Origin: Gammaproteobacteria bacterium
GTDB lineage: Bacteria; Pseudomonadota; Gammaproteobacteria; Steroidobacterales; Foliamicaceae
Reading direction: 5' to 3'
Length of the DNA stretch: 64,000 nt
NCBI GenBank assembly: GCA_965213995.1
Contig: OZ243929.1
Span: 92,134 to 156,133, forward strand
The notes below the pieces were generated by a model that saw only the letters and a list, made by a program, of their open reading frames with translations, made no database searches and had not been told where the DNA came from. The first letter of the stretch is position 1; every line of letters begins with the position of its first letter. Made by a program: the position numbers and the translations under genes. Shown here piece after piece: positions 4,335 through 63,965 of the stretch.

Positions 4335-4481
4335 ATGTTGCTGCGGGAACTCTGGCGTTACATGCGCGTGCGCAAGAAGTGGTGGCTGCTGCCGATCCTG
4401 CTTGCGCTGCTGCTGCTCGGCGGGCTGATCGTGCTGACCGAGGGAAGCGTTGTCGCGCCGTTCATCTACACCGTCTTCTAG
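4335..4481 (+). CDS. DUF5989/SxtK-like 48-aa membrane peptide (paralogue A)
   Basis: ATG at 4335. Reads MLLRELWRYMRVRKKWWLLPILLALLLLGGLIVLTEGSVVAPFIYTVF*. It ends 9 nt before the carbamoyltransferase start and is conserved at 22928..23074. It is below the ORF-track length cutoff as a stand-alone ORF. Confidence 0.6.
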   Translation: MLLRELWRYMRVRKKWWLLPILLALLLLGGLIVLTEGSVVAPFIYTVF

Positions 4482-4489
4482 CATCCCGT

Positions 4490-7879: not shown

Positions 7880-8914
7880 TTAGGGCTTTCTCCACTGGCG
7901 CTGAACATCGGCGCTGGTGCTGTCAACGTTCCTAGGCCATAAATGGTGGTTGGCGATATACCAATCTTTTGTTTGTTGCAACCCTTCTGGCAAGGATATG
8001 CGTGGGCGATAGCCGAGTGCGGCCACTTTGGCAATGGATGGGCATCGCTTATCCGTCTCACCGAGAGGGGCTTGCGATGGAACAAGTTCGGCCTGCCGAC
8101 CAAACAAAGCCATAACCTGCATCGCCAAATCCTTAATCGTCACCATATCCGTGGTGCCTACATGATAGATGCCACAGTGTTCTTCCTGTGTGAATGCCAA
8201 ATAGCTGCCGTCTGTGAAATCATCGATGTGAACGAAAGAACGGGTTTGGTTGCCATCGCCGCGGATGGGAAAACGGACATCTCCGCCAGTCGGTGTTTTT
8301 TCGACCATCGATGCTGCCCGCATCAGCAATTGCGGAATAACATGCTCAAAGCCCATATCTGCCCCATAAACATTATGCGGCCGCACAATCACAACCTGAC
8401 TGAAAACATCACGGCTATAATTCACCGCTAAAAGTTCGGTAGCAATTTTGCCACCACCATAGCTATAACGCGGATTCATCACGTCAGGCACAACCAACAT
8501 CGCGTGTTCATCTGTCGGCACGGTAGCAGGGCGCTGATAGACTTCTGACGAACTCATCGTCCAATAACGGCTAATTCCACGCGCAATGGCGACATCAAGG
8601 GTGTTCAAAGCCCCCTTGATACCGACTTCCAAAACCAAACGGGGCTTCTGGTAAAAGAATTCCGTGCCATTGACATAAGCCAAATGCGCTATCACATCGA
8701 TAGCCTCGGCGGCTCGATAGACCGCATCATAATCTCGAACATCACCATCAATCAATTCAATATCGGCAAGAACATCAGCCAAACGGCGCTTATGGCCGCG
8801 TGAATGGTCATCCAGCACCCTGACAGCCCACCCTTCTCGCAGCAATTTTTTGACCAGAGCACTGCCTAAAAAGCCGCTGCCGCCCGTCACCAGAATACGT
8901 CCCTTTGCCATCAA
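7880..8914 (-). CDS. NAD-dependent nucleotide-sugar epimerase/dehydratase (SDR)
   Basis: 344-aa ORF with an ILVTGGSGFLGSAL Rossmann motif and YSYGGGK (YxxxK). Visibly lower GC than its surroundings. It overlaps the upstream dehydrogenase by 4 nt. Confidence 0.8.
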   Translation of the reverse strand: MMAKGRILVTGGSGFLGSALVKKLLREGWAVRVLDDHSRGHKRRLADVLADIELIDGDVRDYDAVYRAAEAIDVIAHLAYVNGTEFFYQKPRLVLEVGIKGALNTLDVAIARGISRYWTMSSSEVYQRPATVPTDEHAMLVVPDVMNPRYSYGGGKIATELLAVNYSRDVFSQVVIVRPHNVYGADMGFEHVIPQLLMRAASMVEKTPTGGDVRFPIRGDGNQTRSFVHIDDFTDGSYLAFTQEEHCGIYHVGTTDMVTIKDLAMQVMALFGRQAELVPSQAPLGETDKRCPSIAKVAALGYRPRISLPEGLQQTKDWYIANHHLWPRNVDSTSADVQRQWRKP

Positions 8915-22927: not shown

Positions 22928-23074
22928 ATGTTGCTGCGGGAACTCTGGCTCTACATGCGCGTGCGCAAGAAGTGGTGGCTGCTGCCGATCCTGGTGGTGC
23001 TACTGCTGCTCGGCGGGCTGATCGTGCTGACCGAGGGAAGCGTTGTCGCGCCGTTCATCTACACCGTCTTCTAG
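22928..23074 (+). CDS. DUF5989/SxtK-like 48-aa membrane peptide (paralogue B)
   Basis: MLLRELWLYMRVRKKWWLLPILVVLLLLGGLIVLTEGSVVAPFIYTVF*, the C-terminal part of track ORF 22733..23074. Confidence 0.6.
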   Translation: MLLRELWLYMRVRKKWWLLPILVVLLLLGGLIVLTEGSVVAPFIYTVF

Positions 23075-23082
23075 CATCCCGT

Positions 23083-24918
23083 ATGCGCGTGCTCGGCATT
23101 TCGGCGTTTTACCATGACAGCGCCGCTGCCCTAGTCGTGGATGGCGAGGTGGTCGCCGCCGCCCAGGAGGAACGGTTCACCCGCCTGAAGCACGACCGGT
23201 CATTTCCGCGCGGCGCCATTGCCTGCTGCCTGGATGTGGCCGGCCTGTCGCTGGACCAAGTCGATCTCGTCGCCTTCTACGACAAGCCGTTCCTCACGTT
23301 CGAGCGCCTGCTTGAGACCTACCTGTCCTTCGCGCCCAGGGGGTTTCGGTCGTTTTCGGCAGCCATGCCGACCTGGATGAAGGAGAAGCTGTTCCAAAAG
23401 CGCCTGCTGGGGCAGGCGTTGCGCGGCTTCGACCCCGATTTCGATAGCGAAGCGAAACTGGTGTTCGCCGAGCACCACCAGTCGCACGCGGCCAGCGCTT
23501 TTTTCCCGTCGCCGTTCGATTCGGCCGCCGTGCTCACCATCGACGGCGTCGGGGAATGGGCAACGACGACGCTCAGCTTGGGCGAAGGCAACCGAATTGA
23601 GGTGGTGCGCGAGCTGCACTTTCCGCATTCCCTTGGCCTGCTCTACAGCGCCTTCACGCAATATCTCGGCTTCCGGGTCAATTCCGGCGAGTACAAGGTC
23701 ATGGGGTTGGCGCCCTACGGCGAACCGCGGCACGCCCGCGCGATCCTCGACCGCCTGATTGATGTCAAGGAGGACGGCACCTTCCGCTTGGATATGAACT
23801 ACTTCGGATACTGCACCGGGCTGCGGATGACCAACCGCCGCTTCGAGGCCCTGTTCGGCCAGCCCGCCCGCAGGCCCGGGGACCGGCTTGAGCCGTTCCA
23901 TATGGATGTCGCCGCCTCGGTGCAGGCGGTCACCGAGGAGGTGGTTGAACGCCTGGGACGGTCGATTGCGAACGAGACGGGAGCCCGCAACCTGTGCCTT
24001 GCCGGCGGGGTTGCCCTCAACTGCGTCGCCAACGGCAGGCTGTTGCGCAGCCGCGCCTTCGAGAATGTCTGGATTCAACCGGCTGCGGGGGATGCCGGAG
24101 GCAGCCTAGGCGCCGCCTTGGCGGCCTATCACCACCACTTGGGCCACCCCCGGCACCGGACGACAGGCGGCGACGGGATGCGGGGCGCCTATCTCGGCCC
24201 GGCATTCGACGACGAGACGGTCGCGGCGCGATTGGCGCGGGCGGGGGCGCGCTTCCGCCGCCTAGAGGACGCGGAGCTATTGGAAAGCGCCGTCAACGCG
24301 CTGGCCAGCGGCTGGGCGCTGGGCTGGTTCCAAGGCCGGATGGAGTTCGGCCCCCGGGCGTTGGGAAACCGCTCGATCCTCGGCGACCCGCGCTCGCCGG
24401 CCATGCAGCGCTCCCTGAACCTGCGCGTCAAGTTTCGGGAAAGCTTCCGTCCCTTCGCGCCCTCGGTGCTGCGCGAGGATGTTGCGGACTGGTTCGAACT
24501 GGATATCGACAGCCCTTACATGCTGGTCGTGGCCGATGTCCGGCAGGAGCGCCGCCGACCCCTTTCCCAAGCGGACGAAGCGCTGGAGGGGGTGGACCGA
24601 GTCAACGCCGTGCGCTCCGAGATTCCCGCCGTGACCCACGTGGACCATTCGGCGCGGATTCAGACGGTGGGACGGGACACCAACCCCAAGTACCACGCGC
24701 TGCTATCCGCGTTCAAGCAGCGCACGGGCTGCCCGGTGCTGGTCAACACCTCGTTCAACGTGCGCGGCGAACCGATCGTGTGCGCGCCGGAGGACGCGTT
24801 CCGCTGCTTCATGGGCACCGATATCGAGGCGCTGGCCGTGGGCAACTGCTTCCTGCTGAAGAACGAACAGGATGCAGCGCTCAGGCGCGACTACCGCCGC
24901 GAGTTCAAGCCGGACTGA
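23083..24918 (+). CDS. Carbamoyltransferase (NodU/CmcH/SxtI family), paralogue B
   Basis: MRVLGISAFYHDSAAALV...; differs from 4490..6325 by only a handful of residues. Confidence 0.9.
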   Translation: MRVLGISAFYHDSAAALVVDGEVVAAAQEERFTRLKHDRSFPRGAIACCLDVAGLSLDQVDLVAFYDKPFLTFERLLETYLSFAPRGFRSFSAAMPTWMKEKLFQKRLLGQALRGFDPDFDSEAKLVFAEHHQSHAASAFFPSPFDSAAVLTIDGVGEWATTTLSLGEGNRIEVVRELHFPHSLGLLYSAFTQYLGFRVNSGEYKVMGLAPYGEPRHARAILDRLIDVKEDGTFRLDMNYFGYCTGLRMTNRRFEALFGQPARRPGDRLEPFHMDVAASVQAVTEEVVERLGRSIANETGARNLCLAGGVALNCVANGRLLRSRAFENVWIQPAAGDAGGSLGAALAAYHHHLGHPRHRTTGGDGMRGAYLGPAFDDETVAARLARAGARFRRLEDAELLESAVNALASGWALGWFQGRMEFGPRALGNRSILGDPRSPAMQRSLNLRVKFRESFRPFAPSVLREDVADWFELDIDSPYMLVVADVRQERRRPLSQADEALEGVDRVNAVRSEIPAVTHVDHSARIQTVGRDTNPKYHALLSAFKQRTGCPVLVNTSFNVRGEPIVCAPEDAFRCFMGTDIEALAVGNCFLLKNEQDAALRRDYRREFKPD

Positions 24919-37407: not shown

Positions 37408-37599
37408 TTTCCTTGTTGTCATGGCGATGTTTGACGGAATCGAGGATGGCATCTCGGCGCAAACCCTAGTGCGATGCCATATTGAACGAATCGGAGCACC
37501 GGCACAAGACCGACGGCCAACCGCTCGCTGCCTTTCGCCGAGCGGGCAGGTTAATATGCGACGGTCTTATTGGCCTGCAACAACAAAGGCGCTGATCGA

Positions 37600-38967
37600 A
37601 TGTCGCCGTCAGCCGTGATTCTCGGCGCGCTCGTCGCCTTAGCGGCGGTCGCGCCCCTGCCTTTCGGAAGCGTGCCCGAATGGGCCGGCGGCATGCTGGC
37701 GGGCAGCGTCGGCGCCCTTCTTGCCGCTTGGGGCGCGCTGGCCCTGCGGGGGTCGGTTCGGCTTGTTCGGCCCCCGGCCTGGTTTTGGCTGGCGGCGGGG
37801 CTGTTTTTGGCGGCGCTGGGCTGGGGGGTCGCGCAAACGCTGACCGGCATCCCGGCTGCGCCGTACGCCTTCCGAGGGGAGGGCGCGGAGGCAATCGGGC
37901 CGGTGGCGCTGGACCCGGCCGCAGGCCAGGCCGCCGCCGTGCAAATCGCCGCTTGCGCCGGCGTTTTCTGGCTGGCGCTGCAAACCGGACGGGATGCGAA
38001 GCGCGCCGCTTGGGCGTTCGCGGCCCTCGGTTTCGCCGCTGCCTTGCACGCTCTGTACGGGCTGTTGGCGCATCTGTCGGGAACCAACACCATCCTATGG
38101 TTTGCCAAGACCGCCTACCACGATGTCGTGACGGGAACCTTCGTTAACCGCAACACCTTTGCCACCCACGCGGCTTTGGGGCTGCTCTGCCTTGCCGCGG
38201 CGTTGCGCGGGGCTTTCGGAACCGCCTCGGCCCAAACAGCGCCAGGCCGGGAGCGCTTGCGCCGGCTGGCGGCCGAAGCTCCGGCGCGCAAGGCGCTGCT
38301 GCTCGCCGCGGCGCTGCTGGTCGGCAACGCCATCCTGCTTTCGGAGTCCCGCGCCGGCGTCGCGGTCGCTTTGCTGGGGCTGACCGCGTTGCTGGCGATG
38401 CTCGCCCTGCGCGCGAGACGGCCGCTTCTTGCAGTGGCCGCGACGGCGGGCGTATTGGGTGCCGGATTGCTGTTCGCCACATTGGGGGAAGGGCTCGAAC
38501 GGCGGCTGTGGACGGCGGAAGAGGACTGGGAAGGCCGTCGGCAGATCGCCGCGGAGACTCTGGACGCCATCCATGCGGCGCCGCTGCGCGGCGTGGGGCT
38601 TGGCGGCTTCGAGGCGGCGCACCGGATGCATCGCGAAGCGGGCGGCGCGGTCCGCATCGAGCGGGCGCACAATGATTATTTGCAAACCGCGCTGGAACTG
38701 GGGGTGCCGGGCGCCTTGGCGTTTTTCACGTCACTCGGGACCTTGGCGTTCGCCTGCGCTTGGGGCGCGCTGCGGCGGCGGCGCAACGCCGTTTTTCCGG
38801 CTGCCGGGTTCGCCGCCTTCGTTTTGGTGGGGGCGCATTCCGTCGTGGACTTCAGCCTAAGGGTGCCGGCGGTGTCCGTGCTGTTCTCGCTGATGCTGGG
38901 CGTTGCGGTCGCGCAATCTTGGCGGGGGGGGGGGGGTGAAGAGAAGGACTGCTGTGTAACGCCGTAA
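37600..38967 (+). CDS. O-antigen ligase/polymerase-family membrane protein (Wzy_C-like)
   Basis: Polytopic membrane protein containing the ..ERAHNDYLQTALELGVPGALAF.. motif typical of the family. A G13 tract lies 10 codons before the stop. Confidence 0.75.
   Translation: MSPSAVILGALVALAAVAPLPFGSVPEWAGGMLAGSVGALLAAWGALALRGSVRLVRPPAWFWLAAGLFLAALGWGVAQTLTGIPAAPYAFRGEGAEAIGPVALDPAAGQAAAVQIAACAGVFWLALQTGRDAKRAAWAFAALGFAAALHALYGLLAHLSGTNTILWFAKTAYHDVVTGTFVNRNTFATHAALGLLCLAAALRGAFGTASAQTAPGRERLRRLAAEAPARKALLLAAALLVGNAILLSESRAGVAVALLGLTALLAMLALRARRPLLAVAATAGVLGAGLLFATLGEGLERRLWTAEEDWEGRRQIAAETLDAIHAAPLRGVGLGGFEAAHRMHREAGGAVRIERAHNDYLQTALELGVPGALAFFTSLGTLAFACAWGALRRRRNAVFPAAGFAAFVLVGAHSVVDFSLRVPAVSVLFSLMLGVAVAQSWRGGGGEEKDCCVTP
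38924..38936. repeat. Homopolymer G13 near the 3' end of the O-antigen-ligase-like gene
   Basis: tggcGGGGGGGGGGGGGtgaag, read as RGGGG. Confidence 0.9.
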
Positions 38968-39125: not shown

Positions 39126-39452
39126 TTGATGCCTGCCGGATCGGATAAAATAACTTGGATGAATGTTTCGGACTCCGCCCCTCTTGCGCGCAACGAAGCG
39201 GTCGTGTTCACCGAACTCGACGGCGATGTGGTGATGCTCGATGCCAAAGCTGGGCGCTACTACGAACTCGACTCCGTGGGCAGCCGCATCTGGACGCTGC
39301 TTGAGGATAAGCCCACCTTGGCGCAGTTGCGGGACGCGCTGGCGGTCGAGTTCGACGTTGGCGGCGAAGCCCTCCTTGAGGATATCCACCAATTTATGAG
39401 CGAGCTTGCCAAGCGCGGGCTCGTCGCCGAGGCTGGCGATGAAGCGGAGTGA
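39126..39452 (+). CDS. PqqD-family peptide chaperone (RRE; lasso B1-like)
   Basis: EAVVFTELDGDVVMLDAKAGRYYELDSVGSRIWTLLEDKPTLAQLRDALAVEFDVGGEALLEDIHQFMSELAKRGLV is a typical PqqD/RRE sequence pattern. Confidence 0.8.
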   Translation: MMPAGSDKITWMNVSDSAPLARNEAVVFTELDGDVVMLDAKAGRYYELDSVGSRIWTLLEDKPTLAQLRDALAVEFDVGGEALLEDIHQFMSELAKRGLVAEAGDEAE

Positions 39453-40044
39453 GCCGGTTTCCGCCGGCCCTAATCCGCCGCGCGTCCGCAAGCCGAAGGA
39501 AGGCGTGCGCCTGCTCGGCCCCGTGGATATCGCCCCCCTCGAAGCCATTCTCTCGCGCCTGACTGATAACGTCTGGCGCGCCGAGGACGAAAGCAAGCCG
39601 AACAAGTTCAGCTGCTTCCATCACACCCGCCATATGATTTTCCGCTTTAGCAGTTTCCGGGACGTCCGCGTTTTCCGCTCGCGCCCGGCCTGGCGCATCT
39701 GGAGCGGTTCGCTGCTGCCGGTAATGGCCGAGGCGAGCGCTGCCTACGGCTTCTCCGAACCGGTCTTTCCCAAGGCGATGTTCGCCCGGCTCGCCGCTGG
39801 CCACCGCATTGATGTCCACACCGACGGCTACAGCGCCGCCTGCCAAGCGCACAAGATCCACGTTCCGGTTCGCACCGAAGCCGCCGCCGTTATCGAGGTG
39901 GACGGCATCGAGCGCCATCTGCGCCAAGGGCACGCCTACGAGATCAACAACCTTATGTCGCACAGCGCCTTCAACGCCGGCGACCGCGACCGGGTGCATT
40001 TCATCTTCGAGGTGTTCGACGGATTCCCGCAGGGCGGCGGATGA
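39439..40044 (+). CDS. Aspartyl/asparaginyl beta-hydroxylase-family Fe(II)/2OG oxygenase
   Basis: ..GHRIDVHTDGY...HKIHVPVRT..IEVDG...LRQGHAYEINNLMSHSAFNAGDRDRVHFIFEV parallels the PF05118 core. The ATG at 39439 overlaps the PqqD gene end by 14 nt. Confidence 0.65.
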   Translation: MKRSEPVSAGPNPPRVRKPKEGVRLLGPVDIAPLEAILSRLTDNVWRAEDESKPNKFSCFHHTRHMIFRFSSFRDVRVFRSRPAWRIWSGSLLPVMAEASAAYGFSEPVFPKAMFARLAAGHRIDVHTDGYSAACQAHKIHVPVRTEAAAVIEVDGIERHLRQGHAYEINNLMSHSAFNAGDRDRVHFIFEVFDGFPQGGG

Positions 40045-40949
40045 AGGGCGGCGGCTGGTTCGCCACGTACGGGCTGCTCATTCGTTCCGAGTTGGCGCTG
40101 CCGCTATTCGCCCCCGCCGGGCCTGGCGAGCCGGATGCCGTCGTTCGCCTGGGCGCGGTGCCGGAGGCGCTGCCCCAACCCAGCCGCTCCCGGCGTTATT
40201 GGCAGGCGGCGCCCGGCGACTTCCTGCTGCGCTTCGGAGATGCGTTCCGCTGCCGCGTGACGGACGGCCGCGAAATCACGGTGCATCTCCTGGACGGCGG
40301 GCGCGAGCGGTTCCACTTTGCGAGTTCCGTCTGGACCGCCCTGCTGATGCAGCGCGGATTGCTGCCGCTCCACGCCAGCGCGGTATGGACGGAACAGGAC
40401 GGCGCCGTTCTTATCATGGGCGACTCCGGCGCCGGCAAATCGACGCTCGCCGCAGCGTTGATGGCTCGGGGCTTCAATATGCTCACCGACGATGTGGCCG
40501 CACTGAGCGCCGCTGCGGGTTCGCCGCCCCGCGTCGCGCCCGGCTATCCGAATCTGCGCCTGAAGGCCGATGCCTTGGAACAGGTCGCCACTCTGCCCAA
40601 CGGCATCGACGGCCTGACGCGGCACGGCACGGACAAGCATCTGCTGCCGGCGGAGAGGTTCGCCCGCAAGCCGCAGATTGTCCGTGCCGCCTATGTGCTC
40701 AAAAGAAGGACCGCCGAAGCGCTCGAACTGGAGAAAACGAGATCCGCCGAAGCCTTCCGAACCTTGACGCGTTTCATCCACCGCCCCGGGTACGTCCATG
40801 GATTGGGGCTTGTCGAGGCATACTTCAACATCTTGGCGAGCATCTCCGGGAAATTTCCGGTGACGCATGTGATCCGGCCCGCCGAGGGCATCAAGCCCCG
40901 CGCTTTGGCCCGCCGCATCGAATGCCATCTCGCCGACGGTTCCGTTTAG
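40041..40949 (+). CDS. HPr-kinase-like P-loop protein (HprK-related kinase; candidate precursor Ser kinase) copy 1
   Basis: LHASAVWTEQDGAVLIMGDSGAGKSTLAAALMARGFNMLTDDVAAL resembles the HprK C-terminal kinase core. ATGA overlap with the upstream oxygenase. Confidence 0.7.
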   Translation: MKGGGWFATYGLLIRSELALPLFAPAGPGEPDAVVRLGAVPEALPQPSRSRRYWQAAPGDFLLRFGDAFRCRVTDGREITVHLLDGGRERFHFASSVWTALLMQRGLLPLHASAVWTEQDGAVLIMGDSGAGKSTLAAALMARGFNMLTDDVAALSAAAGSPPRVAPGYPNLRLKADALEQVATLPNGIDGLTRHGTDKHLLPAERFARKPQIVRAAYVLKRRTAEALELEKTRSAEAFRTLTRFIHRPGYVHGLGLVEAYFNILASISGKFPVTHVIRPAEGIKPRALARRIECHLADGSV

Positions 40950-41367: not shown

Positions 41368-43308
41368 TCAGTCCGTCTGCCAGTCGAGGAAGCTCAGGGC
41401 GCGTACGATTTTTCCGGGTTGCCTGCGGTCGTCGGGCAGCCCGGCACTGGCTTCAAGGTAGGCGCGCAGCCTCGCCATGTCGAGGTAGCGGGCGCGGGCC
41501 GGCGTGTCGGAGCGGGCGGCGAGCCGTCCGGCAATCAAGGGCAGCGCCTCGCTCAAGCTATCGAAGCAGGGGCGGTGGCGCGCCGGGTCCGTCTTGTCGG
41601 TATGCTCCGCAACGCATGGGGGCAGCACGGATTTCAGGGACTGCCGGAAAAACCAGCGCGAACTGCGGCCGTAGCGGAACTGCTCGGGCGGCAATCCAAG
41701 GACGAATTCAATCAGGCGCCGGTCGAGCAGCGGATAGCGGTACTCGATGCCCGTTCGGGCGCCGCTCGCCGCCCAGTCCTGGATGCGCTGCTCGAGATGT
41801 CCGCTCCCCAGCCGTACCAGTTGCGTCTGCCGGACGCTGACCGGCCGGGCGGCGAGCCTGCCCTGCGGCGGGCGCCGATGCTTGCGGGCCAAGGCCGGAT
41901 GAACGAAGGATGGCCGCAGCATGCGGGGCCTTTGCCCCTTGAGCAGCGCGGAAACCGTATTCGAGGCACGGGGATGCACCAGCGGCAGAACCGCTTGGTG
42001 CGCCAGGAAGCGCCAGCTCCTCTGCCGTCGCCGCGCTTCCCTTAGCAGCTGGCGCCACCGCCCGCCCCGCAACAGCATGGGGTAGTAGTCCGCGCCGCTT
42101 GAGGAAGCGATTTCATCGCCGCCCCAGCCGGAAAGGATCACGCGCACATCCAATTCGGCGGCGCTGCGCTGCACCAGCGCCTCGTGCATCAGCACGCCTT
42201 GGTGGTCGGCCACCCGGGCGCCGTCGAGGCCGAGCCTTGCCAATGTGTGCTCCACCGAAACGGAGTGGTAGCGCGGATGGAGGCCCTCCTGCGCGCAAAC
42301 CGATTCGATCAGGCGGTATTCGGAAGCCTCGTTCTCGGGCTGGGAATCGTTTGGCGGCGGATGCCAGCACAGCGCGTGCAGCCGCCGGGCCGAAGGCCGC
42401 AGCTCGCGGGCCGCCAGCACGGCCACGCTCGACGAGTCCAGCCCGCCGCTCAGATGCGCGCCGACCGGCCCGGCGCCTTGCAGCCGGTCGCGCACGGCGC
42501 GGCGGTAGTGGTCGAGGAATTCCCGCTGGTAGTCCTGGTTCGACCCGCGGCCCGCGGCGGGCGCGTCCTCCGGGCGCCACCAGCGCCGCAAGCGCTCGCC
42601 TCGCCCGTTGGCGGCGATGCTGTGGCCGGGCGGCAGGCTGCGCACGGCGCGGAAGAAGGTGCTGTTCGTATCCGGCGTATTGCCCATGAGGTTAATGACG
42701 GCATGGGCCTCGTCCAGATCATCCTCCACGCCGGACGCGGCGAGCGCCGCTGCAATGTCGCTGGCGAAGACGAAGCGCCCGCCGCCCGCCAAGGCGTAAT
42801 AGAACGGACGGGCGCCCAGCGCATCGCGGGCGCAGAACAGCAGGCGCTTTGCGGGATCCCAAACCGCGAAGGCGTAGTCGCCGTGCAGCTGTAGGGGGCA
42901 GTTCTCGCCCCAGCGCCCGTAGGCCCGCAGGATCAGCCCGCAATCGGTTGCGCCGATGCTTTCCGCAGCGCCGAGGCCGAGGGCGCTGGCGAGTTCGGCG
43001 CGGTTGTCCAGCCGCGCGTCGGCCACGGCGATCAAGCCCCGGTCGGAGCATCGGGCTTGCCAAGCGTCTTCTTGCCCTTGTTCCCCGGCATCGGCCCGCA
43101 GCGCCCGGTATCCGAAGGAGACGGCGCCCCCGTTGATCCGCCCCGCGCGCCCTAGTCCCGGCAATTCGGCTAGCATCGCGCCGATAGGGTCCCGGTTCGG
43201 ATCCGGGTTCGCGGCATCGCCCGCTGCGCCCCGGTGGCATACCCCGCAAATTGTCCGCGCCAATGCTCGACTCCTATTTTCATCCCGCTTCTCATCGAAA
43301 CCGGGCAC
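41368..43308 (-). CDS. Asparagine-synthetase-like protein, lasso-cyclase type (copy 1)
   Basis: 646 aa. The N-terminus lacks Cys2 (..ARTICGVCHRG..). It has the ..LIAVADARLDNRAELASALG.. block and the SGGLDSS PP-loop motif. Confidence 0.75.
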   Translation of the reverse strand: MPGFDEKRDENRSRALARTICGVCHRGAAGDAANPDPNRDPIGAMLAELPGLGRAGRINGGAVSFGYRALRADAGEQGQEDAWQARCSDRGLIAVADARLDNRAELASALGLGAAESIGATDCGLILRAYGRWGENCPLQLHGDYAFAVWDPAKRLLFCARDALGARPFYYALAGGGRFVFASDIAAALAASGVEDDLDEAHAVINLMGNTPDTNSTFFRAVRSLPPGHSIAANGRGERLRRWWRPEDAPAAGRGSNQDYQREFLDHYRRAVRDRLQGAGPVGAHLSGGLDSSSVAVLAARELRPSARRLHALCWHPPPNDSQPENEASEYRLIESVCAQEGLHPRYHSVSVEHTLARLGLDGARVADHQGVLMHEALVQRSAAELDVRVILSGWGGDEIASSSGADYYPMLLRGGRWRQLLREARRRQRSWRFLAHQAVLPLVHPRASNTVSALLKGQRPRMLRPSFVHPALARKHRRPPQGRLAARPVSVRQTQLVRLGSGHLEQRIQDWAASGARTGIEYRYPLLDRRLIEFVLGLPPEQFRYGRSSRWFFRQSLKSVLPPCVAEHTDKTDPARHRPCFDSLSEALPLIAGRLAARSDTPARARYLDMARLRAYLEASAGLPDDRRQPGKIVRALSFLDWQTD

Positions 43309-44905: not shown

Positions 44906-45700
44906 CTATGAATTCCGGCGGGAATCGGCGAAATCGTAGCCGAATTCCGCGATGAGCTTGCGCTCCCTCAGAGCGACCAGCTCCCGCAGCTCGTTGCTGT
45001 AGCGGCCCGTGAACCCCTTGCCGCGCGGGGAGGCGTTCGCGGGGGGTTCCAGTTTGAGGTAGGCGGCGATGTTTTTGGTGATCGGCGCCCCGGTTTCCTC
45101 GAACAGCAGCAGCGCCTCCTCGCGGAGATTCTCGAACCGGCCGTAAAGAATCCTCCGCTCCTGCTTGGGGTGTGCGGGTTCAGGCACATGTGGGACTGGG
45201 GTTGTTTCCGCCTTGGCGGAGCGGGGACGGAACATCAGGTCGAACAGCCAGCCGTAGTAGCCGGCGCCGTCGGGATAGCGGGAGAAGTCCTCCGACATGA
45301 GTCCGGGCCCCTGCCTGCGCCCCGGCCCCCTCGCGGCCGTCGTTTTGGGCGCTGCCGCCGCCAGGCGGCGCAGCAGCGCGCGGCTCTCGCCGCTGCCGTC
45401 CCCGAGATTGAGAAACCGCGCGACCGTGCGCTCGAAGTCCAGCGCGCCCTGCTCGGAGAGAACCTGAAAGACGTATTGCCGCTTGCGGCGGTAGTCCTGG
45501 TGCATGGACAGATACCAGTCCCAGGGATTGCGAACGAACCCGATGACGGGCAGGCGCGAGTGGGCGGTCGGCAGGTCTTCGAGGCGCCCGTGGTACTGAA
45601 TCATCCGCGCGCCCGGGAATTCCCCCAGGATCAGGTTGTTGAGGAAGGTGCCGCCGGTTCGGGAAACATGGATGAAGACGAAGTGGTCGGTGACGATCAT
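44906..45700 (-). CDS. Sulfotransferase-family protein (copy 1)
   Basis: MIVTDHFVFIHVSRTGGTFLNNLI is a PAPS-loop-like HxxxTGGT motif. The C-terminus is ..YGRFENLREEAL...AEFGYDF. An IS481-IR-like 26-mer lies in frame at 45171-45196. Confidence 0.6.
   Translation of the reverse strand: MIVTDHFVFIHVSRTGGTFLNNLILGEFPGARMIQYHGRLEDLPTAHSRLPVIGFVRNPWDWYLSMHQDYRRKRQYVFQVLSEQGALDFERTVARFLNLGDGSGESRALLRRLAAAAPKTTAARGPGRRQGPGLMSEDFSRYPDGAGYYGWLFDLMFRPRSAKAETTPVPHVPEPAHPKQERRILYGRFENLREEALLLFEETGAPITKNIAAYLKLEPPANASPRGKGFTGRYSNELRELVALRERKLIAEFGYDFADSRRNS
45171..45196. repeat. Solo IS481-type inverted-repeat copy inside the sulfotransferase ORF
   Basis: TGTGCGGGTTCAGGCACATGTGGGAC differs at one position from the IRR of the IS at 4140-4165 (reverse complement). 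Confidence 0.7.
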
Positions 45701-47546: not shown

Positions 47547-48197
47547 TCAGCGGATGCGCACCCCGTCCTCATAGAGATGGCCGTCCGGCTCGTTATAGCC
47601 GGAGGGCAGGCTGCGGCCGCAGCCCTCGCCACTCGACAAGAAGCTGCTGTTGCGGGTTTTCCTGACTGCATACGGCTTGGGGTTGCTCCTAATTTCATCA
47701 ACCCAGATGGCCATCATGCCGCTGCCGATGTTCCCGCCAAAGCCCTTGATCACGGCTCCGGTCCTGGGCCGGATATCCAGGGTGAGGTCCCGGTTCAAGG
47801 CTCCGGTTCCAAACGTGGCATAACCGCCTTCTCGACTCGGGGCGAGATTTTGCCACGCTCCACCCTCGCGCCGCCATTCCAGCTGGTTCCATTCAGTGGA
47901 TGGCTGGGTTTTGACTTCAATTCTGACGGTTGATCCGCCAAAGTCTCTGAAGGCGACGGCGGGATTGGTGGACGACAGGCGCAGATGCCAGCGCAAGTGG
48001 TCGCCGCCGCAGCCGCCCACGTGGTAGCCGTTGATGTTGCCGGTGACGGAGATCGTGCATGTTCCAGTTGTGCAGGCGTTCTGCGCCATCACCGCCGATG
48101 GCAGGGCCAGCGTCAGGGCCGCCAATGCGACGATGAGCGCTGTCCGGTGTCCAAGATGTGTTTTGTTCTGGGGGGGGGGGGGGGTGGAGCGGATCAT
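47547..48197 (-). CDS. Secreted protein of unknown function with an N-terminal poly-Pro tract
   Basis: 216 aa. MIRST-PPPP-QNKTHLGHRTALIVALAALTLALPSAVMA|QNACTTGTC... has a signal-peptide-like h-region and an AxA site. The C15 tract occupies codons 5-10. Confidence 0.6.
   Translation of the reverse strand: MIRSTPPPPQNKTHLGHRTALIVALAALTLALPSAVMAQNACTTGTCTISVTGNINGYHVGGCGGDHLRWHLRLSSTNPAVAFRDFGGSTVRIEVKTQPSTEWNQLEWRREGGAWQNLAPSREGGYATFGTGALNRDLTLDIRPRTGAVIKGFGGNIGSGMMAIWVDEIRSNPKPYAVRKTRNSSFLSSGEGCGRSLPSGYNEPDGHLYEDGVRIR
48170..48184. repeat. Homopolymer G15 (C15 on the coding strand)
   Basis: ttctGGGGGGGGGGGGGGGtggagcggatcat. Confidence 0.9.
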
Positions 48198-48317: not shown

Positions 48318-49493
48318 ATGGATGCCCGAACCAACCCTTACGCCCCCGGAGCCGGCGCCCCCCCGCCCGAGCTGGCCGGACGCGATGAACTCATCGACGA
48401 GGCCGCCATTGCCTTGGATCGGATACGCAATGGCTTGGCGGCCAAGAGCCTGCTCATGGTGGGGCTCCGCGGCGTGGGCAAAACCGTGCTCTTGAACCGC
48501 ATCTTCCGGGATGCGGAATGCCGGGGCTTCACCACGCTCCTGCTCGAAGCGCCGGAAGGGCGCTCGCTGCCCGGCTTGCTGGCCGCGCCGCTGCACAGCG
48601 CCCTTGCGAAGATGAGCCGCCGTGCCGCTGCCGGCGATGCCGCAAGGCGGGCGCTCCGGGCGCTTGCCGGATTTGCGCGCGCCATGAAGGTCAATTTCGG
48701 CGACATCAGCATCGGCATCGATATCGAGGCAGAGCCGGGGTTTGCGGACAGCGGCCACTTGGACTTCGACCTGAGCGATCTGCTCGCTGCGGTGGGCGAA
48801 GCCGCAAAGGACCAGAACACCGCGTTCGCACTGTTTATCGACGAACTGCAATACGTTGAGGAAAGCCAGCTTGCCGCCTTGATCGCCGCCCTTCACCGCG
48901 CCGCCCAACGGCAACTCCCCGTCACGCTCATTGGCGCCGGGCTGCCCCAACTCGTAGCCCACGCGGCCGCCGCGAAATCATACGCCGAAAGATTGTTCCG
49001 CTTTCCCGAAATAGGCCCGCTGCCCGAGGATGCGGCCCGACACGCCCTTGAAGCGCCCGCCAGGAAGCGGAATGTGCTTTTTCATCCCGATGCCCTTTCG
49101 GCGATCGTGCGGCGCACGCAAGGCTATCCCTACTTCCTTCAAGAATGGGGCAAGCACAGTTGGGATTGCGCCGAGGCATCCCCGATCACAGCGCAAGATG
49201 TCGATGCGGCCACGGCGCAAGCCACCGCGGAACTGGATGCCAGCTTCTTCCGCGCCCGTTTTGATCGGCTGGCCCCGTCGGAAAAGCGCTATTTGCGGGC
49301 TATGGCGGAGCTGGGTCCGGGGCCGCACCGTTCGGGGGAAATCAGCGGGATGCTCGCCAAGGGCGTGGCAGTCGTCGCGCCGACTCGCGCCAAGCTCATC
49401 GCAAAAGGCATGATCCACAGTCCCGCCCACGGCGACACCGGCTTTACCGTGCCGCTGTTCGACGAATTCCTGCGGCGGGTGCTGCGGGATTGA
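48318..49493 (+). CDS. P-loop ATPase (Orc1/Arch_ATPase-like)
   Basis: 391 aa. LLMVGLRGVGKTVLLN Walker A, FALFIDELQY Walker B. Its stop overlaps the next ORF start (TTGA). Confidence 0.65.
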   Translation: MDARTNPYAPGAGAPPPELAGRDELIDEAAIALDRIRNGLAAKSLLMVGLRGVGKTVLLNRIFRDAECRGFTTLLLEAPEGRSLPGLLAAPLHSALAKMSRRAAAGDAARRALRALAGFARAMKVNFGDISIGIDIEAEPGFADSGHLDFDLSDLLAAVGEAAKDQNTAFALFIDELQYVEESQLAALIAALHRAAQRQLPVTLIGAGLPQLVAHAAAAKSYAERLFRFPEIGPLPEDAARHALEAPARKRNVLFHPDALSAIVRRTQGYPYFLQEWGKHSWDCAEASPITAQDVDAATAQATAELDASFFRARFDRLAPSEKRYLRAMAELGPGPHRSGEISGMLAKGVAVVAPTRAKLIAKGMIHSPAHGDTGFTVPLFDEFLRRVLRD

Positions 49494-50464
49494 CTCGCAA
49501 GCCTTTGCGAGCGGCGTCCGCGCCCGGGAGCGCTTCGGAGCAGCCGTTGCGCCATTACCAGGGCTACGGCCTGCGCTTGGAGTCGAGCGTCGATTTGCCG
49601 TGGCCCGCCGCCGCGCCGTGCCCCGGTGACGAAGCGGATCTGTCCGTTCGCGGCGGGGCGGTGCCGCAGGCGCTCGCATCGCCGGCGGACGAATGCGGCT
49701 TTTGGCAGACGGCGCCCGGCGCCCTGCTGCTGAATGCGCCCGGCATCGCCCGTTGCCTGGTCTGCGAATCCGGCCGGCTGATCCGCTTCGATCCGGCGGA
49801 GGACGGCGGCGGCGGCGCGGTGGCCGCGGCGCTTGAATCCGCGCTCGCCGCCTGCCTGCAGATGCGCGGCGTCCTGACCCTGCGCGCCAGCGCCGTCGCC
49901 ACGGCCGAGGGCGCGGCGGTGCTGGCCGGGCGCGCCGCGACCGGCAAATCGACCCTGGCCGCGGCCCTGGCGGACCTCGGATACCCGCTGTTGGCCGACG
50001 GCATCGTTGCCGTTGCTGTTGCCGGCAACGGCGGCGGGGCGCCGCGCGCCCTGCCCGGATTTCCAAACATGCGCCTGCAAAACCGCGCGCTGAAAATTCT
50101 GGACCCCTCTTGGCAGTCCGCCGCCGCCCCCCCGCGCCCCGAAACGAAAAGCCGCATGGTTCCCGCCCGCCGCTTCCACGGCGAAGCCATGCCGGTGCGC
50201 GCCGTTTATCTGCTCAACCGGAAGGCGGATGCCGAAATCGCATGCAAGCAGCTTTCCCAGACCCAGGCGTTCGCCGCTCTGACCGCGGCCACCTGCCGTT
50301 TGCGGTTCCTGCGCGGCTTGGGCGCCGAGCGCGGCCATTTCCGCGCCGTCGCATCCGTCGCCAAGCGCGCGCCGGTGGAGCGCCTCACCTGGCCTGCCGC
50401 CGCCTGCGCGCCGCCGACCGCGGCCGATTGGATGGCTCAACGCCTGCCGCCGCCGTGCCCTTGA
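49490..50464 (+). CDS. HPr-kinase-like P-loop protein, copy 2
   Basis: LRASAVATAEGAAVLAGRAATGKSTLAAALADLGYPLLADGIVAV parallels 40041..40949. The putative TTG start is uncertain. Confidence 0.65.
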   Translation: MTRKPLRAASAPGSASEQPLRHYQGYGLRLESSVDLPWPAAAPCPGDEADLSVRGGAVPQALASPADECGFWQTAPGALLLNAPGIARCLVCESGRLIRFDPAEDGGGGAVAAALESALAACLQMRGVLTLRASAVATAEGAAVLAGRAATGKSTLAAALADLGYPLLADGIVAVAVAGNGGGAPRALPGFPNMRLQNRALKILDPSWQSAAAPPRPETKSRMVPARRFHGEAMPVRAVYLLNRKADAEIACKQLSQTQAFAALTAATCRLRFLRGLGAERGHFRAVASVAKRAPVERLTWPAAACAPPTAADWMAQRLPPPCP

Positions 50465-52561: not shown

Positions 52562-52747
52562 TCAGGAAACACCATAATCTTGGAATTCCGAGTTGAGGGA
52601 GTTTCTCTTTGGGCCAGAGAATGTCTCATCTAGGCCAACCGTTTTGACGGTCGGCGGGTGCCAGGGACGTTTACGGGATTCGCCGCTGCGGTTGCCGGTG
52701 GAGTTGCGCCGATTCTGGGGGGGGGGGGGGGTGGTTGTGGTGGGCAT
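52562..52747 (-). CDS. Candidate lasso-type precursor peptide with N-terminal poly-Pro tract (type 2, in frame)
   Basis: ATG at 52747. MPTTTT-PPPP-QNRRNSTGNRSGESRKRPWHPPTVKTVGLDETF|SGPKRNSLNSEFQDYGVS*. The leader block is conserved with 57928..58126 and 63044..63235, the C-terminus is variable and the last residue is Ser. Part of track ORF 52562..52780. Confidence 0.5.
   Translation of the reverse strand: MPTTTTPPPPQNRRNSTGNRSGESRKRPWHPPTVKTVGLDETFSGPKRNSLNSEFQDYGVS
52717..52731. repeat. Homopolymer G15 (C15 on the coding strand)
   Basis: gattctGGGGGGGGGGGGGGGtggttgtggtgggcat. Confidence 0.9.
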
Positions 52748-57927: not shown

Positions 57928-58126
57928 CTAGCTTTGTTCTTCTCCAAGAAAGAATCCATATGATGGGGATTCCTCCTGAACGGCATTAAATCTGGGGGAG
58001 CCTCGCGTCTCAGTCAGTTCAACCGTTTTGACGGTCGGCGGGCGCCAGGAGCGTTTGCGGGGTTCGCCGCTACGGTTGTCGGCGGAGTTGCCCGAATTCT
58101 GGGGGGGGGGGGGGGGTATTTGACAT
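57928..58126 (-). pseudogene. Candidate lasso-type precursor (type 2), out of frame by 1 nt at the tract (candidate OFF state)
   Basis: RBS GAGGAAG, then ATG (58126) MSNT + C16. With C15 it reads PPPPQNSGNSADNRSGEPRKRSWRPPTVKTVELTETR|GSPRFNAVQEESPSYGFFLGEEQS*. As sequenced it stops after ~18 codons. Confidence 0.45.
58101..58116. repeat. Homopolymer G16 (C16 on the coding strand)
   Basis: gaattctGGGGGGGGGGGGGGGGtatttgacat. Confidence 0.9.
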
Positions 58127-58361
58127 GAGGGCTTCCTCGTTTCTTGGTTCAGGAAGTCTGAATGGTATTTTCAAAGAGGCATCCGCGCAAGTCATCCGAT
58201 CTCAGTCATCCGATCTCAGTGCGCGGCGAGCGAAACGACCGGCGCAGATTTTCAGGCATCGGTTTCATGCTAGATTGCCGATCATGGCGCTGGTCAATAT
58301 GAAAACCACGGGTGAGATGGGGGCCAAGGGCCGCTGAAGCCAAACTGATGCCTCGCCGACG

Positions 58362-59521: not shown

Positions 59522-60733
59522 TCAATTTTTATCGCTGCGATCCTTTATTGCACCATCGTAGCCTACCCAACGGCCAGACGCCACATGCAGTTTCATGCGC
59601 CTATGCCGGGGCTTGTCCAGATAGAAGCCGATTGACTGCTTCCAGGCGATGACGGCGAGCGTGGCGTTCAGCGCATTCATATCTCCGGTCTGTATCGCAA
59701 CTTCGTAAATGTCCTCGCCCAAATCCTTGCCGGGAGTTCGCTTTGCCAGATTGAGTCGTTTTTGATAATCATCATCGCTTGCGCTTCGCGTCACTCTAGC
59801 CGATGCAGTCAACCCATCGGGATAGCGATGCATGTCTATACCGGAGTCGATGAAGTTGACGCGCAATTCCGCTAACCCCGTCAAAATCTCGTGCCGGTCC
59901 GGGCCGCGATCAATGGCTACGAACACCATCGTCCTGTCCCTCAGCTGAGTTAAGTTCGATTTCTGGACACGAAGCGCCTTGCCAGTGATGTTCCGATTGG
60001 TGCGGCTCGCATAGATCCTTGCTAGATACTCGGCTTTGTTCTGACCTTCCTCGACTATGTGCTGACTAACCACCCCCGGCCATCGGAGCTGCGTATGCTG
60101 ACTAATCAAATCATCATCATATATGACGATACTTCCCACATTGCATTTAGAGATCAAATCAACGATAAATCCCCCGGTTCCGCCAGCACCGATGACAGCA
60201 AGTTTCTCCTGCCTGAACAATTGATCAAGGCCACCAATCGCGCTTCGGGTCAAACCGGTCTCCTGATCGACCATGTTGTTCCCATCAGTAATTGTCCCCG
60301 TTCCCCTTACATCCCGTTGCCATTTCTTGCCGGTTTGACGAGCGATGAATCTGGCATAGGCAAGAATTTTCTGGCCGTAGTTTGGATATCCGCTTCCCGG
60401 CGGCTTTCTGGACATGCCGCAGATGCTCACCTGGCCATTCGGCCAGCTTCGCGAGGAAGTGTCATGAATCAACTCATTGTCCAAGGGCATGCCGTCCGCT
60501 GAATATGGTTTTTCTTCAGCCACCCAATAGACGGTATGGTCACTCGGGGGGGCGATCTTTCCGCCTACCCGCTCTAGATGGCAAATCAGGCGGCCATGCG
60601 CCACACCGCCGTCGCGCTGCCGATACGGAAGCGGCCCGACTGTAAGAACGTCGCCCTCAATCTCGTAATCCAAGCCATTCTGGACTACCCGATCAAGACC
60701 TCCTTCATGATTTGTCAGTGTAGCTGACATCAA
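59522..60733 (-). CDS. ThiF/E1-like adenylyltransferase with a ~170-aa N-terminal extension
   Basis: 403 aa. KLAVIGAGGTGGFIVDLISKCNVGSIVIYDDD is the E1 Rossmann/ATP motif. The N-terminal extension carries conserved-looking Cys (..LICHLE.., ..VSICGMS..). Confidence 0.75.
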   Translation of the reverse strand: MMSATLTNHEGGLDRVVQNGLDYEIEGDVLTVGPLPYRQRDGGVAHGRLICHLERVGGKIAPPSDHTVYWVAEEKPYSADGMPLDNELIHDTSSRSWPNGQVSICGMSRKPPGSGYPNYGQKILAYARFIARQTGKKWQRDVRGTGTITDGNNMVDQETGLTRSAIGGLDQLFRQEKLAVIGAGGTGGFIVDLISKCNVGSIVIYDDDLISQHTQLRWPGVVSQHIVEEGQNKAEYLARIYASRTNRNITGKALRVQKSNLTQLRDRTMVFVAIDRGPDRHEILTGLAELRVNFIDSGIDMHRYPDGLTASARVTRSASDDDYQKRLNLAKRTPGKDLGEDIYEVAIQTGDMNALNATLAVIAWKQSIGFYLDKPRHRRMKLHVASGRWVGYDGAIKDRSDKN

Positions 60734-60947
60734 TAATCATACCCTTGGTGCAGGTTAGAATCCCACCCTCCACCAATTCCTTATCAGCACCCGTCTCGGA
60801 ATCCCGATAATCGACTTCCCATTCAATCGTTGTGCTATGCGTCACATCAGGAAACGCCTCGCAAATCAACTCTTCATAGGTCATGTTGCGTTTCACAGAG
60901 ACTTCGGTGCCATTGAGCACAATGTGCACACCTTCATTTGTATTCAC
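60705..60947 (-). CDS. Ubiquitin-like (multiubiquitin-family-like) small protein
   Basis: The GTG at 60947 is preceded by GGAGGG (11 nt after the upstream stop). (M)NTNEGVHIVLNGTEVSVKRNMTYEELICEAF... is an ~80-aa beta-grasp-like pattern. The track ORF (to 61046) would overlap the upstream gene by 88 nt. Confidence 0.55.
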   Translation of the reverse strand: MNTNEGVHIVLNGTEVSVKRNMTYEELICEAFPDVTHSTTIEWEVDYRDSETGADKELVEGGILTCTKGMIIDVSYTDKS

Positions 60948-60958
60948 TATTTTCCCTC

Positions 60959-61843
60959 CTATCCGATGTATTTCAATTCGGAACGCTGCACCGTTCCACC
61001 GCTGAGGCTCATTCGGGCCAACACCCACTGGGCCATTTTTTGCCAATGCCTCGTTTCGTTTTCTGTTAGCCGTGGTCCAAGTGTGATGTCCATTTTCTTC
61101 AGCGAAGTTCCCACCTGTATCGGCCTTTCGATAAATGTTCTCAACCTGCCACTGGTTGCGTCCAAGCGAACCCCCTTTCCTCTCGCCGCAAGAATTGCGC
61201 CGCTTTCGTCACCCAGAAAGCAGGCCAGTCGAACCTCGCGTTCTGACTCGTAGTCGGTGTGCTTATGTTTTGCCTCTAGCCGCATTCTGCGTTTCCGAAT
61301 CATTTCCCGATCCGATTGACTTTTCCCGTGATCTGCCTGACTTTGCAATAAGGATTCAGCTTCGCGCTTGATATTGTCTGTATCCTTAGTATATTCCACT
61401 TGTATGATCTCCAAGCCATCAATTCGCTGGAGATGTGCGGCATCCCACCAAGTCGTAATCGCGACTCCCTTCCCGTCATCTCCGTAGGCACGCCACATAT
61501 CCAGCCGATTAGCCGCCTCACCCTTTTTGCCGCTTTGGGGCTCGGTGCCGCACATCAAAAAGCTGTCGTCTGGCACTGTGTCTCTGCGTCTTTCGCCGGA
61601 CTTGCTCATCGTCACGTCAGATACGTATTCAGCGATCGTCTGCTCCGTGGGATCATTCATCCCCGAGCGACTGTACAAGCGCAGCGTAACATCGGGTGGG
61701 CCTTTCAGCCGGTCCTTTCTGTCAGATGACAGCTCTCTCAGCCATCCATCGAGTATCGAAGCCGCAGCCGCCTGACTCGTGAAATGTGTAATTCCCGTGA
61801 GCAAGATCTCCTCTTGCCCCTCTTTAGCGTTTTTCTGCGCCAT
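60959..61843 (-). CDS. DUF2971-like protein
   Basis: 294 aa. ..GITHFTSQAAAASIL.. and ..SGMNDPTEQ.. resemble the (Y)HYTS / NDPxE motifs of DUF2971. First gene of the operon. Confidence 0.5.
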   Translation of the reverse strand: MAQKNAKEGQEEILLTGITHFTSQAAAASILDGWLRELSSDRKDRLKGPPDVTLRLYSRSGMNDPTEQTIAEYVSDVTMSKSGERRRDTVPDDSFLMCGTEPQSGKKGEAANRLDMWRAYGDDGKGVAITTWWDAAHLQRIDGLEIIQVEYTKDTDNIKREAESLLQSQADHGKSQSDREMIRKRRMRLEAKHKHTDYESEREVRLACFLGDESGAILAARGKGVRLDATSGRLRTFIERPIQVGTSLKKMDITLGPRLTENETRHWQKMAQWVLARMSLSGGTVQRSELKYIG

Positions 61844-63043: not shown

Positions 63044-63235
63044 TCAGGAATCCTGCAAAAAGTATTCACCAAATTCGGTTGATAAGCTCGAATTATCACC
63101 AGATCGGGTCTCCCCTAGGTTGACCGTTTTGACGGTCGGCGGGCGCCAGGAGCGTTTGCGGGGTTTCTCTAGAAATTCAGGGGGGGGGGGGGGGGGGGGG
63201 GTAAGGTTGCGATTCTTGTTAGGCCGGGATCTCAT
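63044..63235 (-). CDS. Candidate lasso-type precursor, hybrid (type-1 N-terminus + type-2 leader/core), in frame
   Basis: RBS AGGAGG, 9 nt, then ATG (63235). MRSRPNKNRNLT-PPPPPPP-EFLEKPRKRSWRPPTVKTVNLGETR|SGDNSSLSTEFGEYFLQDS*. Part of track ORF 63044..63289. Confidence 0.5.
   Translation of the reverse strand: MRSRPNKNRNLTPPPPPPPEFLEKPRKRSWRPPTVKTVNLGETRSGDNSSLSTEFGEYFLQDS
63180..63201. repeat. Homopolymer G22 (C22 on the coding strand)
   Basis: aaattcaGGGGGGGGGGGGGGGGGGGGGGtaaggttgcgattc. Confidence 0.9.
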
Positions 63236-63392: not shown

Positions 63393-63965
63393 TCAGGCCC
63401 GCTCCACCTCGAACGCCGCCAAGTTGCGGTCGGACTTGCTGAATTCGACGGCGACCAGGTGGATCGGCTCGCCCAAGGCGCGGTACTTCCCGGCGTAGTC
63501 CCTGGCTTTCAACTGCGCCATCGCGGCGGCGTAGTAGAGCGGCCGGGCGCCAATGTGGTCCCGGGCAAGAAGCAGCCGGCGGCGTTCGGCGTCCCACGCG
63601 GCGAAAGCGTAATCGCCGTACAGCCGCTGCGGACACTCCGCGCCCCATTTGCGCCAGGCGCGCAAAATCAATTCCGCGTCCGTCAGCGGCTCGTCCTTTC
63701 GTTCGGAAACGCCCAGCGCGGCGCGCAACTCGTCGCGCCCGTCGATGCGGGCGCTTGCGACCACCCAATCGCCCTCGCCGCCGCGCGCGCAGCAGGCCGC
63801 GCCGTCCGCCGCCTCATGCCCGCGCCAGCCCAAGCGGGCCGCTTCCGCCGTCCAGGCCGCGGTGGCATCTGTTCGGCGCCCGGGCAGGGCGGCCACCATG
63901 GCATCGAGCGCCGCCGCGCCGGGGTCGCCGCGCAAGGCTTGGATTCCGCAGATCATGCTGGCCAT
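63393..63965 (-). pseudogene. Chimeric ORF: first ~147 codons of the cyclase fused to the C-terminal tail of an unrelated (PD-(D/E)XK / AAA-ATPase-like C-terminal type) gene
   Basis: Identical to cyclase 2 up to ..ARPLYYAAA, then MAQLKARDYAGKYRALGEPIHLVAVEFSKSDRNLAAFEVERA*. The junction is at ~63523. Confidence 0.7.

Follow-up and report, generated by a model that had tools for sequence, protein, structure and literature searches.

Why should a peptide precursor gene with an intact leader and an intact core be put out of frame by a run of sixteen cytosines just behind its start codon? The gene in question occupies positions 58126-57928 on the minus strand of the window, as we call the whole stretch of 64,000 nucleotides that was analysed. 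Its Shine-Dalgarno sequence, GAGGAAG (58138-58132, minus strand), is separated by a 5-nt spacer from the start codon ATG (58126-58124, minus strand) and is conserved in the same cassette of three related loci (L001, L016 and L017). This SD-proximal ATG is the second of two start positions of the family cassette and is here called ATG2. It is followed by TCA AAT A, so that MSNT is encoded before the tract, and then by 16 uninterrupted C (58116-58101, minus strand). The tract starts 10 nt after the ATG, i.e., in the 5' coding region, and lies between the start cassette and the leader frame. The initial annotation had reported the ribosome binding site, the ATG, MSNT and C16, and direct reading of the minus strand confirms all four.

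In the frame of this ATG the open reading frame as sequenced (MSNTPPPPPEFGQLRRQP, 58126-58070, minus strand) ends with a TAG (58072-58070) after 18 codons, in agreement with the earlier claim of about 18. The +1 frame reads (P)5, then a leader, then a core, all of them intact. The leader, QNSGNSADNRSGEPRKRSWRPPTVKTVELTETR, comprises 33 residues (58101-58003, minus strand), displays a W-x-x-P-x-V motif and has Thr at position -2; its 19-mer CCCGCCGACCGTCAAAACG is common to most type-2 copies in all genomes. The core, GSPRFNAVQEESPSYGFFLGEEQS (58002-57931, minus strand), has 24 residues, ends with Ser and is followed by the stop codon TAG (57930-57928). Between the upstream stop and the tract, the +1 frame of this copy contains no ATG, GTG or TTG. 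The leader frame joins the ATG at 58126 only when the tract length is a multiple of three, and the previous frame arithmetic, by which leader and Ser-terminated core need C15 or C18, was right. The predicted product is the full prepeptide for C15 or C18, a peptide of 18 residues for C16 and one of 37 residues for C17.

Judged by its gene content, the neighbourhood is a lasso-peptide cluster of the kinase/glycosyltransferase/sulfotransferase type. Cyclase-2, an Asn-synthetase-like protein (57263-55386, minus strand; Pfam Asn_synthase and GATase_7), finds its best NCBIfam match in NF033535, the lasso isopeptide cyclase, with 288 bits, which is under the curated cutoff of 525. A GT8 glycosyltransferase (55396-54401, minus strand) is encoded downstream of cyclase-2 and a sulfotransferase (Sulfotransfer_3; 54404-53574, minus strand) downstream of GT8; these genes lie at 57263-53574, exactly where the annotation had placed them. 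For a second cyclase (cyclase-1, 41368-43308) the best family is likewise the lasso cyclase. A PqqD-family leader-binding protein of the lasso B1 or RRE type (39126-39452, plus strand; PF05402, 1.2e-16) has the lasso PqqD chaperone as best NCBIfam match, again under the cutoff of that family; in L016 and L017 the PqqD gene comes directly after the precursors. The window further holds two HprK-like kinases (40041-40949 and 49490-50464), an Asp/Asn hydroxylase and an NTP_transf_5 protein, and its lasso-type genes are embedded in polysaccharide genes. In L016 the full set is found together: Transglut_core3, PqqD, precursor, HprK, cyclase, GT8 and sulfotransferase. A tblastn search of the 64-kb window for a lasso B2 protease (transglutaminase-like) gave no match. 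This protease (PF13471) is present in the relatives L016, L020, L021 and L023, and that of the window cluster is probably located outside the window. An ORF of 264 residues after a type-1 precursor (44906-45700) was considered as B2 and rejected, being unrelated to it; the ORF is 95% identical in L017 and matches neither Pfam nor NCBIfam.

The precursor itself has features of its own. Lasso leaders have a YxxPxL-type motif and Thr at -2, and lasso cores begin with Gly, Ser, Ala or Cys and carry Asp or Glu at position 7-9; the leader studied here has W-R-P-P-T-V, thus WxxPxV, and Thr-Arg precedes Gly1. In several subfamilies a conserved acidic core residue is found at position 10 after Thr-Arg, or at 9 if cleavage occurs one residue later, while the canonical position is 7-9. 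Curated lasso-precursor models do not match the studied precursor. The core ends with Ser in 38 of 39 copies, the studied one included. HprK-type kinases phosphorylate the C-terminal Ser of lasso peptides such as paeninodin and pseudomycoidin (PMC8498205), and the Ser-ending cores together with the HprK-like genes fit this modification.

Only a decayed VapBC module had been described between the precursor and cyclase-2. A VapB-like small ORF without Pfam match (57761-57525, minus strand) and a truncated PIN (VapC) remnant (57561-57334, minus strand) are indeed there, the latter recognised weakly (PF01850, E = 0.0077) and over profile positions 1-35 of 120 only. What had been missed is the remnant of an HprK-like lasso kinase, namely its last 24 codons (57338-57267, minus strand). 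The first 47 codons of this kinase of the cyclase-2 operon are found at 62951-62811, about 5.5 kb away from the C-terminal remnant. The relatives have a kinase gene between precursor and cyclase, the window has fragments only. IS30-like and DDE transposase fragments lie between the two kinase remnants, as do genes at 59522-61843 (minus strand) that encode a DUF6791 plus ThiF-like protein and a DUF2971 protein. These genes are located between IS fragments, have a GC3 below that of their surroundings and look like an inserted accessory module, possibly of the defence type. In the stretch 63393-63965, 148 codons of the cyclase N-terminus are present as a further copy (63965-63522), with a PDDEXK_9 fragment behind them.

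The copy with C16 had been treated as a special case. It is in fact one instance of a rule: all 5 precursors of the window carry tracts, and so do all 39 precursor genes of the window and its relatives taken together. The 64-kb window contains 8 runs of C or G of at least 13 nt, while none is expected by chance, as estimated from 100 dinucleotide-preserving shuffles of the window. Five of the 8 are situated 3-13 codons after the Shine-Dalgarno sequence and ATG of precursor genes, all on the minus strand. Two of these genes are type-1 precursors, with C13 (41197-41209; out of frame, needing C12 or C15) and C18 (45961-45978; out of frame, needing C16 or C19). Three are type-2 precursors, with C15 in frame (52717-52731), the C16 of the studied copy out of frame and C22 in frame (63180-63201). 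As assembled, both type-1 precursors, the presumed partners of cyclase-1, are thus out of frame, and both in-frame precursors of the window are of type 2.

The same picture emerges from related genomes. With cyclase-2 as query, matches of 88-99% identity were found in chromosome-level MAGs that bear the labels Pseudomonadales, Gammaproteobacteria, Ca. Azophilus and Pseudohongiella; two further contigs were retrieved with the precursor proteins as query. The window and the loci L001-L006, L016 and L017 yielded 39 non-redundant precursor genes, and all 39 have a pure C run of 10-29 nt (mean 17) after the start. There are 5 precursors in the window and up to 7 per 20 kb in the relatives. Of the 39 tracts, 13 are in frame, 14 at +1 and 12 at -1. 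This is the split that unconstrained slippage gives and not the one that ordinary genes give. No ATG, GTG or TTG is found between tract and leader motif in any module; translation, therefore, must cross the tract. The mean tract length varies by genome, with 13.0 in L017 and 22.7 in L002 (Kruskal-Wallis p = 0.011), a difference that could be biological or technical.

A more distant genome, L019, with a cyclase that is 72% identical, has two precursor paralogues (5666-5866 and 8542-8736) that differ essentially by the tract: one reads MSTPPPPTNFNDR with C13, the other MSTANFNDR without tract, a natural tract-less control. From a separate metagenome (JGI 3300009898, Ga0131712_101030), the locus L018 contributes a precursor with an out-of-frame C10. 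The L018 contig begins about 40 nt upstream of a WHPPTVKTV leader motif and thus near the expected tract, as if the assembly had broken at the homopolymer. Clusters with cyclases of about 50% identity (Acidobacteria, Gemmatimonadetes and one metagenome contig) have no tracts. By these comparisons, tracts are restricted to the gammaproteobacterial lineage whose cyclases are at least 72% identical. A metagenome scan for the near-invariant leader 19-mer gave 8 matches, all of them due to chance and none in a precursor.

How could such a tract work? We lean, with some reserve, towards the view that 58126-57928 (minus strand) is an intact lasso-precursor gene that is gated by a slipped-strand poly-C contingency switch. 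Slipped-strand mispairing at replication would add C residues to the tract or remove them. Lengths divisible by three would connect the ATG at 58126 with leader and core; the other classes would yield the peptides of 18 or 37 residues. C16, as assembled, would belong to the class that needs the loss of one nucleotide or a +1 shift of the ribosome. As each paralogue has a tract of its own, it would be a matter of chance in each cell which of the precursors are expressed. The precursors share the leader and would be served by one set of enzymes: PqqD-type binder, protease, Asn-synthetase-like cyclase, kinase, GT8 and sulfotransferases. The outcome would be a stochastic, combinatorial peptide repertoire. 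Switching within a population, an OFF state equivalent to no product and an adaptive value are what we infer from this scheme.

The most serious objection is a technical one. Two of the relatives' contigs are named in the style of ctg10139_848x_c, which looks like metaMDBG style; the relatives' assemblies and, by inference, that of the window appear to be long-read MAGs. Reads are assembled by metaMDBG in homopolymer-compressed form, and lengths are set only at polishing (PMC11392814). C16 versus C15 is therefore within error, the length of a 16-mer homopolymer in such assemblies being uncertain by at least one base. If, moreover, the tract is hypermutable, the assembly shows just the consensus of the population and hides any mixture. 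One might therefore argue that the main length is truly C15 or C18 and that we are dealing with a normal, constitutively translatable precursor with an N-terminal poly-proline. A frame split of one third each would also be expected from random length errors.

We nevertheless consider this objection unlikely to hold. The cyclase operon, over 3.7 kb, shows no indels against three other genomes, which speaks for a consensus of high quality at least in runs of up to 6 nt, the longest homopolymers of the operon. More telling are the copies with matched flanks. Their tract lengths are 22/14/19/13, 17/26/12/16, 28/17 and 23/14, and differences that reach 11 nt are too large for base-calling errors; length variation is therefore real. 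Nor is the tract proline coding of the ordinary kind. In 19 genes of the window CCC accounts for 35% and CCG for 52% of the Pro codons, yet the tracts are pure CCC; the purity of the tracts is thus a property at the level of DNA and not one of poly-proline coding. The tract-less paralogue of L019 further implies that the prolines of the tract are dispensable. Even if the studied copy were in frame, its tract would stay hypermutable.

A second objection concerns the meaning of the frame. Expression might be leaky and independent of the frame through slippage of RNA polymerase or of +1 tRNA-Pro on C runs of such length, by which part of the ribosomes would reach the leader frame at any length of the DNA tract; the tract would then be a dimmer, or have some other role, instead of being an on/off switch. 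C16 needs a +1 shift, for which there are five successive CCC-C contexts of the type known for tRNA-Pro slippage, and by this analysis its OFF state may leak. Uniform occupancy of the frames is, of course, also what has to be expected where the frame is irrelevant. Shift sites of the +1 type that contain CCC have been described, as has the involvement of EF-P in maintaining the frame (PMC5009743), whereas slippage of bacterial RNA polymerase has been documented mainly on A/T runs (PMC6260861). Spontaneous +1 frameshifting usually does not exceed a few percent, and ON and OFF would then still be far apart. Leaky expression that is independent of the frame looks distinctly improbable to us.

The region upstream of the tract complicates the matter further. 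The 5' cassette (58400-58117, minus strand), which comprises the 5' UTR and the presumed promoter region, is conserved and common to L001:9145, L016:10012 and L017:14492. Eight related cassette copies have an additional ATG (ATG1), 14 nt upstream of ATG2 and in a different frame; the copy of the window is the only one that has ACG instead (58140-58138, minus strand). C16 is in frame with the position of ATG1, and by sequence the T-to-C change there would explain the silent state as well as the extra C does. The claim that the gene is silenced by a single extra C thus survives in part: a one-base slip could restore the frame, but the length error of long reads, the ACG at ATG1 and a possible +1 leak detract from it. 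ATG1 has no recognisable Shine-Dalgarno sequence. In the 9 cassette copies 5 tracts are in the frame of ATG1, 2 in that of ATG2 and 2 in neither; 7 of 9 in one of the ATG frames, with 6 of 9 expected, is not informative as to whether the two-ATG design enriches productive frames. A promoter scan detected no sigma-70-like promoter upstream of the studied precursor, and RNA folding gave no sign of a regulatory structure in the 5' region (z = -0.65) or of a terminator in the region after the stop (z = +0.27). A 14-nt tandem duplication (ACTGAGATCGGATG twice; 58193-58220, minus strand) is specific to the window; L001, L016 and L017 have the same cassette without it.

Is the copy simply dying? Its payload differs from those of L001:9145 and L017:16157 by one codon in the leader and by 5-6 further changes, all in the core; all changes but one are non-synonymous, and there are no indels or stops. 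On this sequence evidence, the payload shows no decay. In L001 the colinear counterpart of the gene carries C17, with 98.3% identity over 4.9 kb, and a copy in L017 with the same cassette and leader has C13. The view that the gene is an orphan, brought in with a rearranged segment rich in IS elements, deprived of the upstream ATG and of the kinase that went with it and now turning into a pseudogene, can point to the ACG found in this copy only, to the duplication in its cassette, to the fragmented kinase, the truncated PIN and the transposase fragments nearby, but it has very little probability in the face of an uninterrupted payload with nearly all changes non-synonymous and core-confined, an intact Shine-Dalgarno sequence with ATG2 and an arrangement of precursor, VapBC remnant and cyclase that is colinear with L001.

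Slippage may not be the only business of these tracts. Pairwise comparison of the loci of the window, L001-L006, L016 and L017 gave 207 pairs in which at least one flank of the tract is homologous; in 159 of these (77%) the other flank turned out to be unrelated, the pairs not being phylogenetically independent. Discordance at neighbouring 60-nt boundaries was 4-19%, at the boundary between leader and core 50%. By this comparison of sequences, the tract is the main homology breakpoint, at which start cassettes and payloads are shuffled. The leader module of the studied gene is joined to at least 10 different 5' cassettes. Its own cassette, in turn, is also found in front of another core type, of a type-1-like precursor with a long leader and of a secreted protein.

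With a slipped-strand switch as the preferred reading of the single gene, one may speculate about the family. The tracts could be universal joints as well as slippage switches, with cassettes being swapped among payloads and genes of secreted proteins, and the whole would be a self-shuffling, stochastic lasso library. Any tract might recombine with any other one; promoter and start-codon cassettes would be swapped thereby, and the tract length would jump by many bases per step. We regard this extension as tentative and, on balance, doubtful. If it were true, we would be looking at a contingency system for secreted chemistry in uncultured marine gammaproteobacteria.

Switches of this kind have a long list of precedents. 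Poly-G/C tracts in the 5' coding region of surface genes of Neisseria, Haemophilus and Campylobacter are contingency loci (PMC5084427); phase variation by homopolymers is known in M. tuberculosis (PMC10334774), and a poly-C tract occurs in mga of group A Streptococcus (PMC10330708). The similarities are considerable: an uninterrupted homopolymer just past the start codon, a change in length that leads to frameshift and truncated products, tract lengths that vary between related genomes with conserved flanks, and several independent loci per genome. Polysaccharide-related (Wzy-like, AlgX-like) and secreted-protein genes of the window also have tracts. The differences should not be overlooked. 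The targets here are RiPP precursor genes instead of adhesins, LOS or restriction-modification genes. The tracts, with 10-29 nt, are much longer than the typical 7-14. They occur in an uncultured marine gammaproteobacterium instead of a pathogen restricted to its host, and the tract, which is known here from consensus sequence, is also a recombination joint of cassettes and payloads.

In systems of the H. influenzae lic1 type, a repeat tract is preceded by two start codons that differ in frame, and strong, weak and off states result. The cassette with two ATGs 14 nt apart, in different frames and upstream of the tract, resembles this design. Unlike in lic1, however, ATG1 lacks a recognisable Shine-Dalgarno sequence and is a candidate start only; in the window it is ACG. 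The prochlorosins are another relevant case: a RiPP library of many precursors with a conserved leader and hypervariable cores. Here, too, one enzyme set faces many precursors, and the cores diversify behind a leader whose conservation extends to its DNA. The RiPP class is a different one, though, and the proposed stochastic translational gate of each precursor is peculiar to the present system.

The enzymes have their closest counterparts in lasso clusters of the paeninodin/pseudomycoidin type, for which an HPr-kinase-like kinase, a nucleotidyltransferase and a sulfotransferase have been described (PMC8498205). Shared are the Asn-synthetase-like cyclase, the PqqD-type binder, the HprK-like kinase, NTP_transf_5, the sulfotransferase, the Ser-ending cores and, in L016, the Transglut_core3 protease. 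Many precursors per genome, GT8, several sulfotransferases and the acidic residue at core position 10 (or 9) set the present cluster apart. Poly-C tracts distinguish it from described lasso precursors; the cluster is known here from its genes. A full-text search of the literature for phase variation or homopolymeric tracts in connection with lasso peptides or RiPP precursors brought up nothing relevant. Phase variation by homopolymer slippage is well known; for RiPP precursor genes, the literature searched contained no example of it.

If the tracts act as switches, this would be the first case found of contingency-locus logic on natural-product precursor genes. With a single enzyme set, a clonal population would then produce tailored lasso peptides in a mixture that varies at random, and the view of the ecology of such peptides would change. 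There are also practical consequences. When read from assemblies, some two thirds of these precursor genes seem to be frameshifted, and a database of 5.8 billion sequences contains no more than four relatives as called proteins; such precursors will therefore be overlooked in genome mining. Attempts at their heterologous expression will fail if the tract length is not adjusted by hand. The case is also a warning not to read on/off states from the consensus of long-read MAGs.

The remaining tracts of the window are found in genes of other kinds. A C15 (48170-48184) follows codon 4 of a gene on the minus strand (47547-48197) and is in frame; the gene encodes a secreted protein with a signal peptide and no Pfam match. 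In relatives, secreted-protein genes have tracts that are out of frame (L002:7768, L005:6019, L006:7773 and L017:16510), and one relative's tract-bearing secreted-protein gene uses the same 5' cassette as the studied precursor. A G13 (38924-38936) is found 31 nt before the stop of a Wzy_C (O-antigen-polymerase-like) gene (37570-38967, plus strand), where by its position a change in length would alter the C-terminal tail only; two relatives (L004:853 and L016:2284) have tracts of 12 and 14 nt in the corresponding position. Finally, an AlgX/SGNH-like gene (20664-22136, minus strand) has an internal, in-frame run of 19 G on the coding strand (21013-21031). It adds about 6 Gly to the protein as compared to the paralogue at 1027-2487 (71% identity, single HSP), and the gene is probably a further length-variable one, in this case of polysaccharide modification. 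The two AlgX-like genes, together with a pair of carbamoyltransferase paralogues (4301-6325 and 22972-24918, plus strand), point to a duplicated polysaccharide-modification block.
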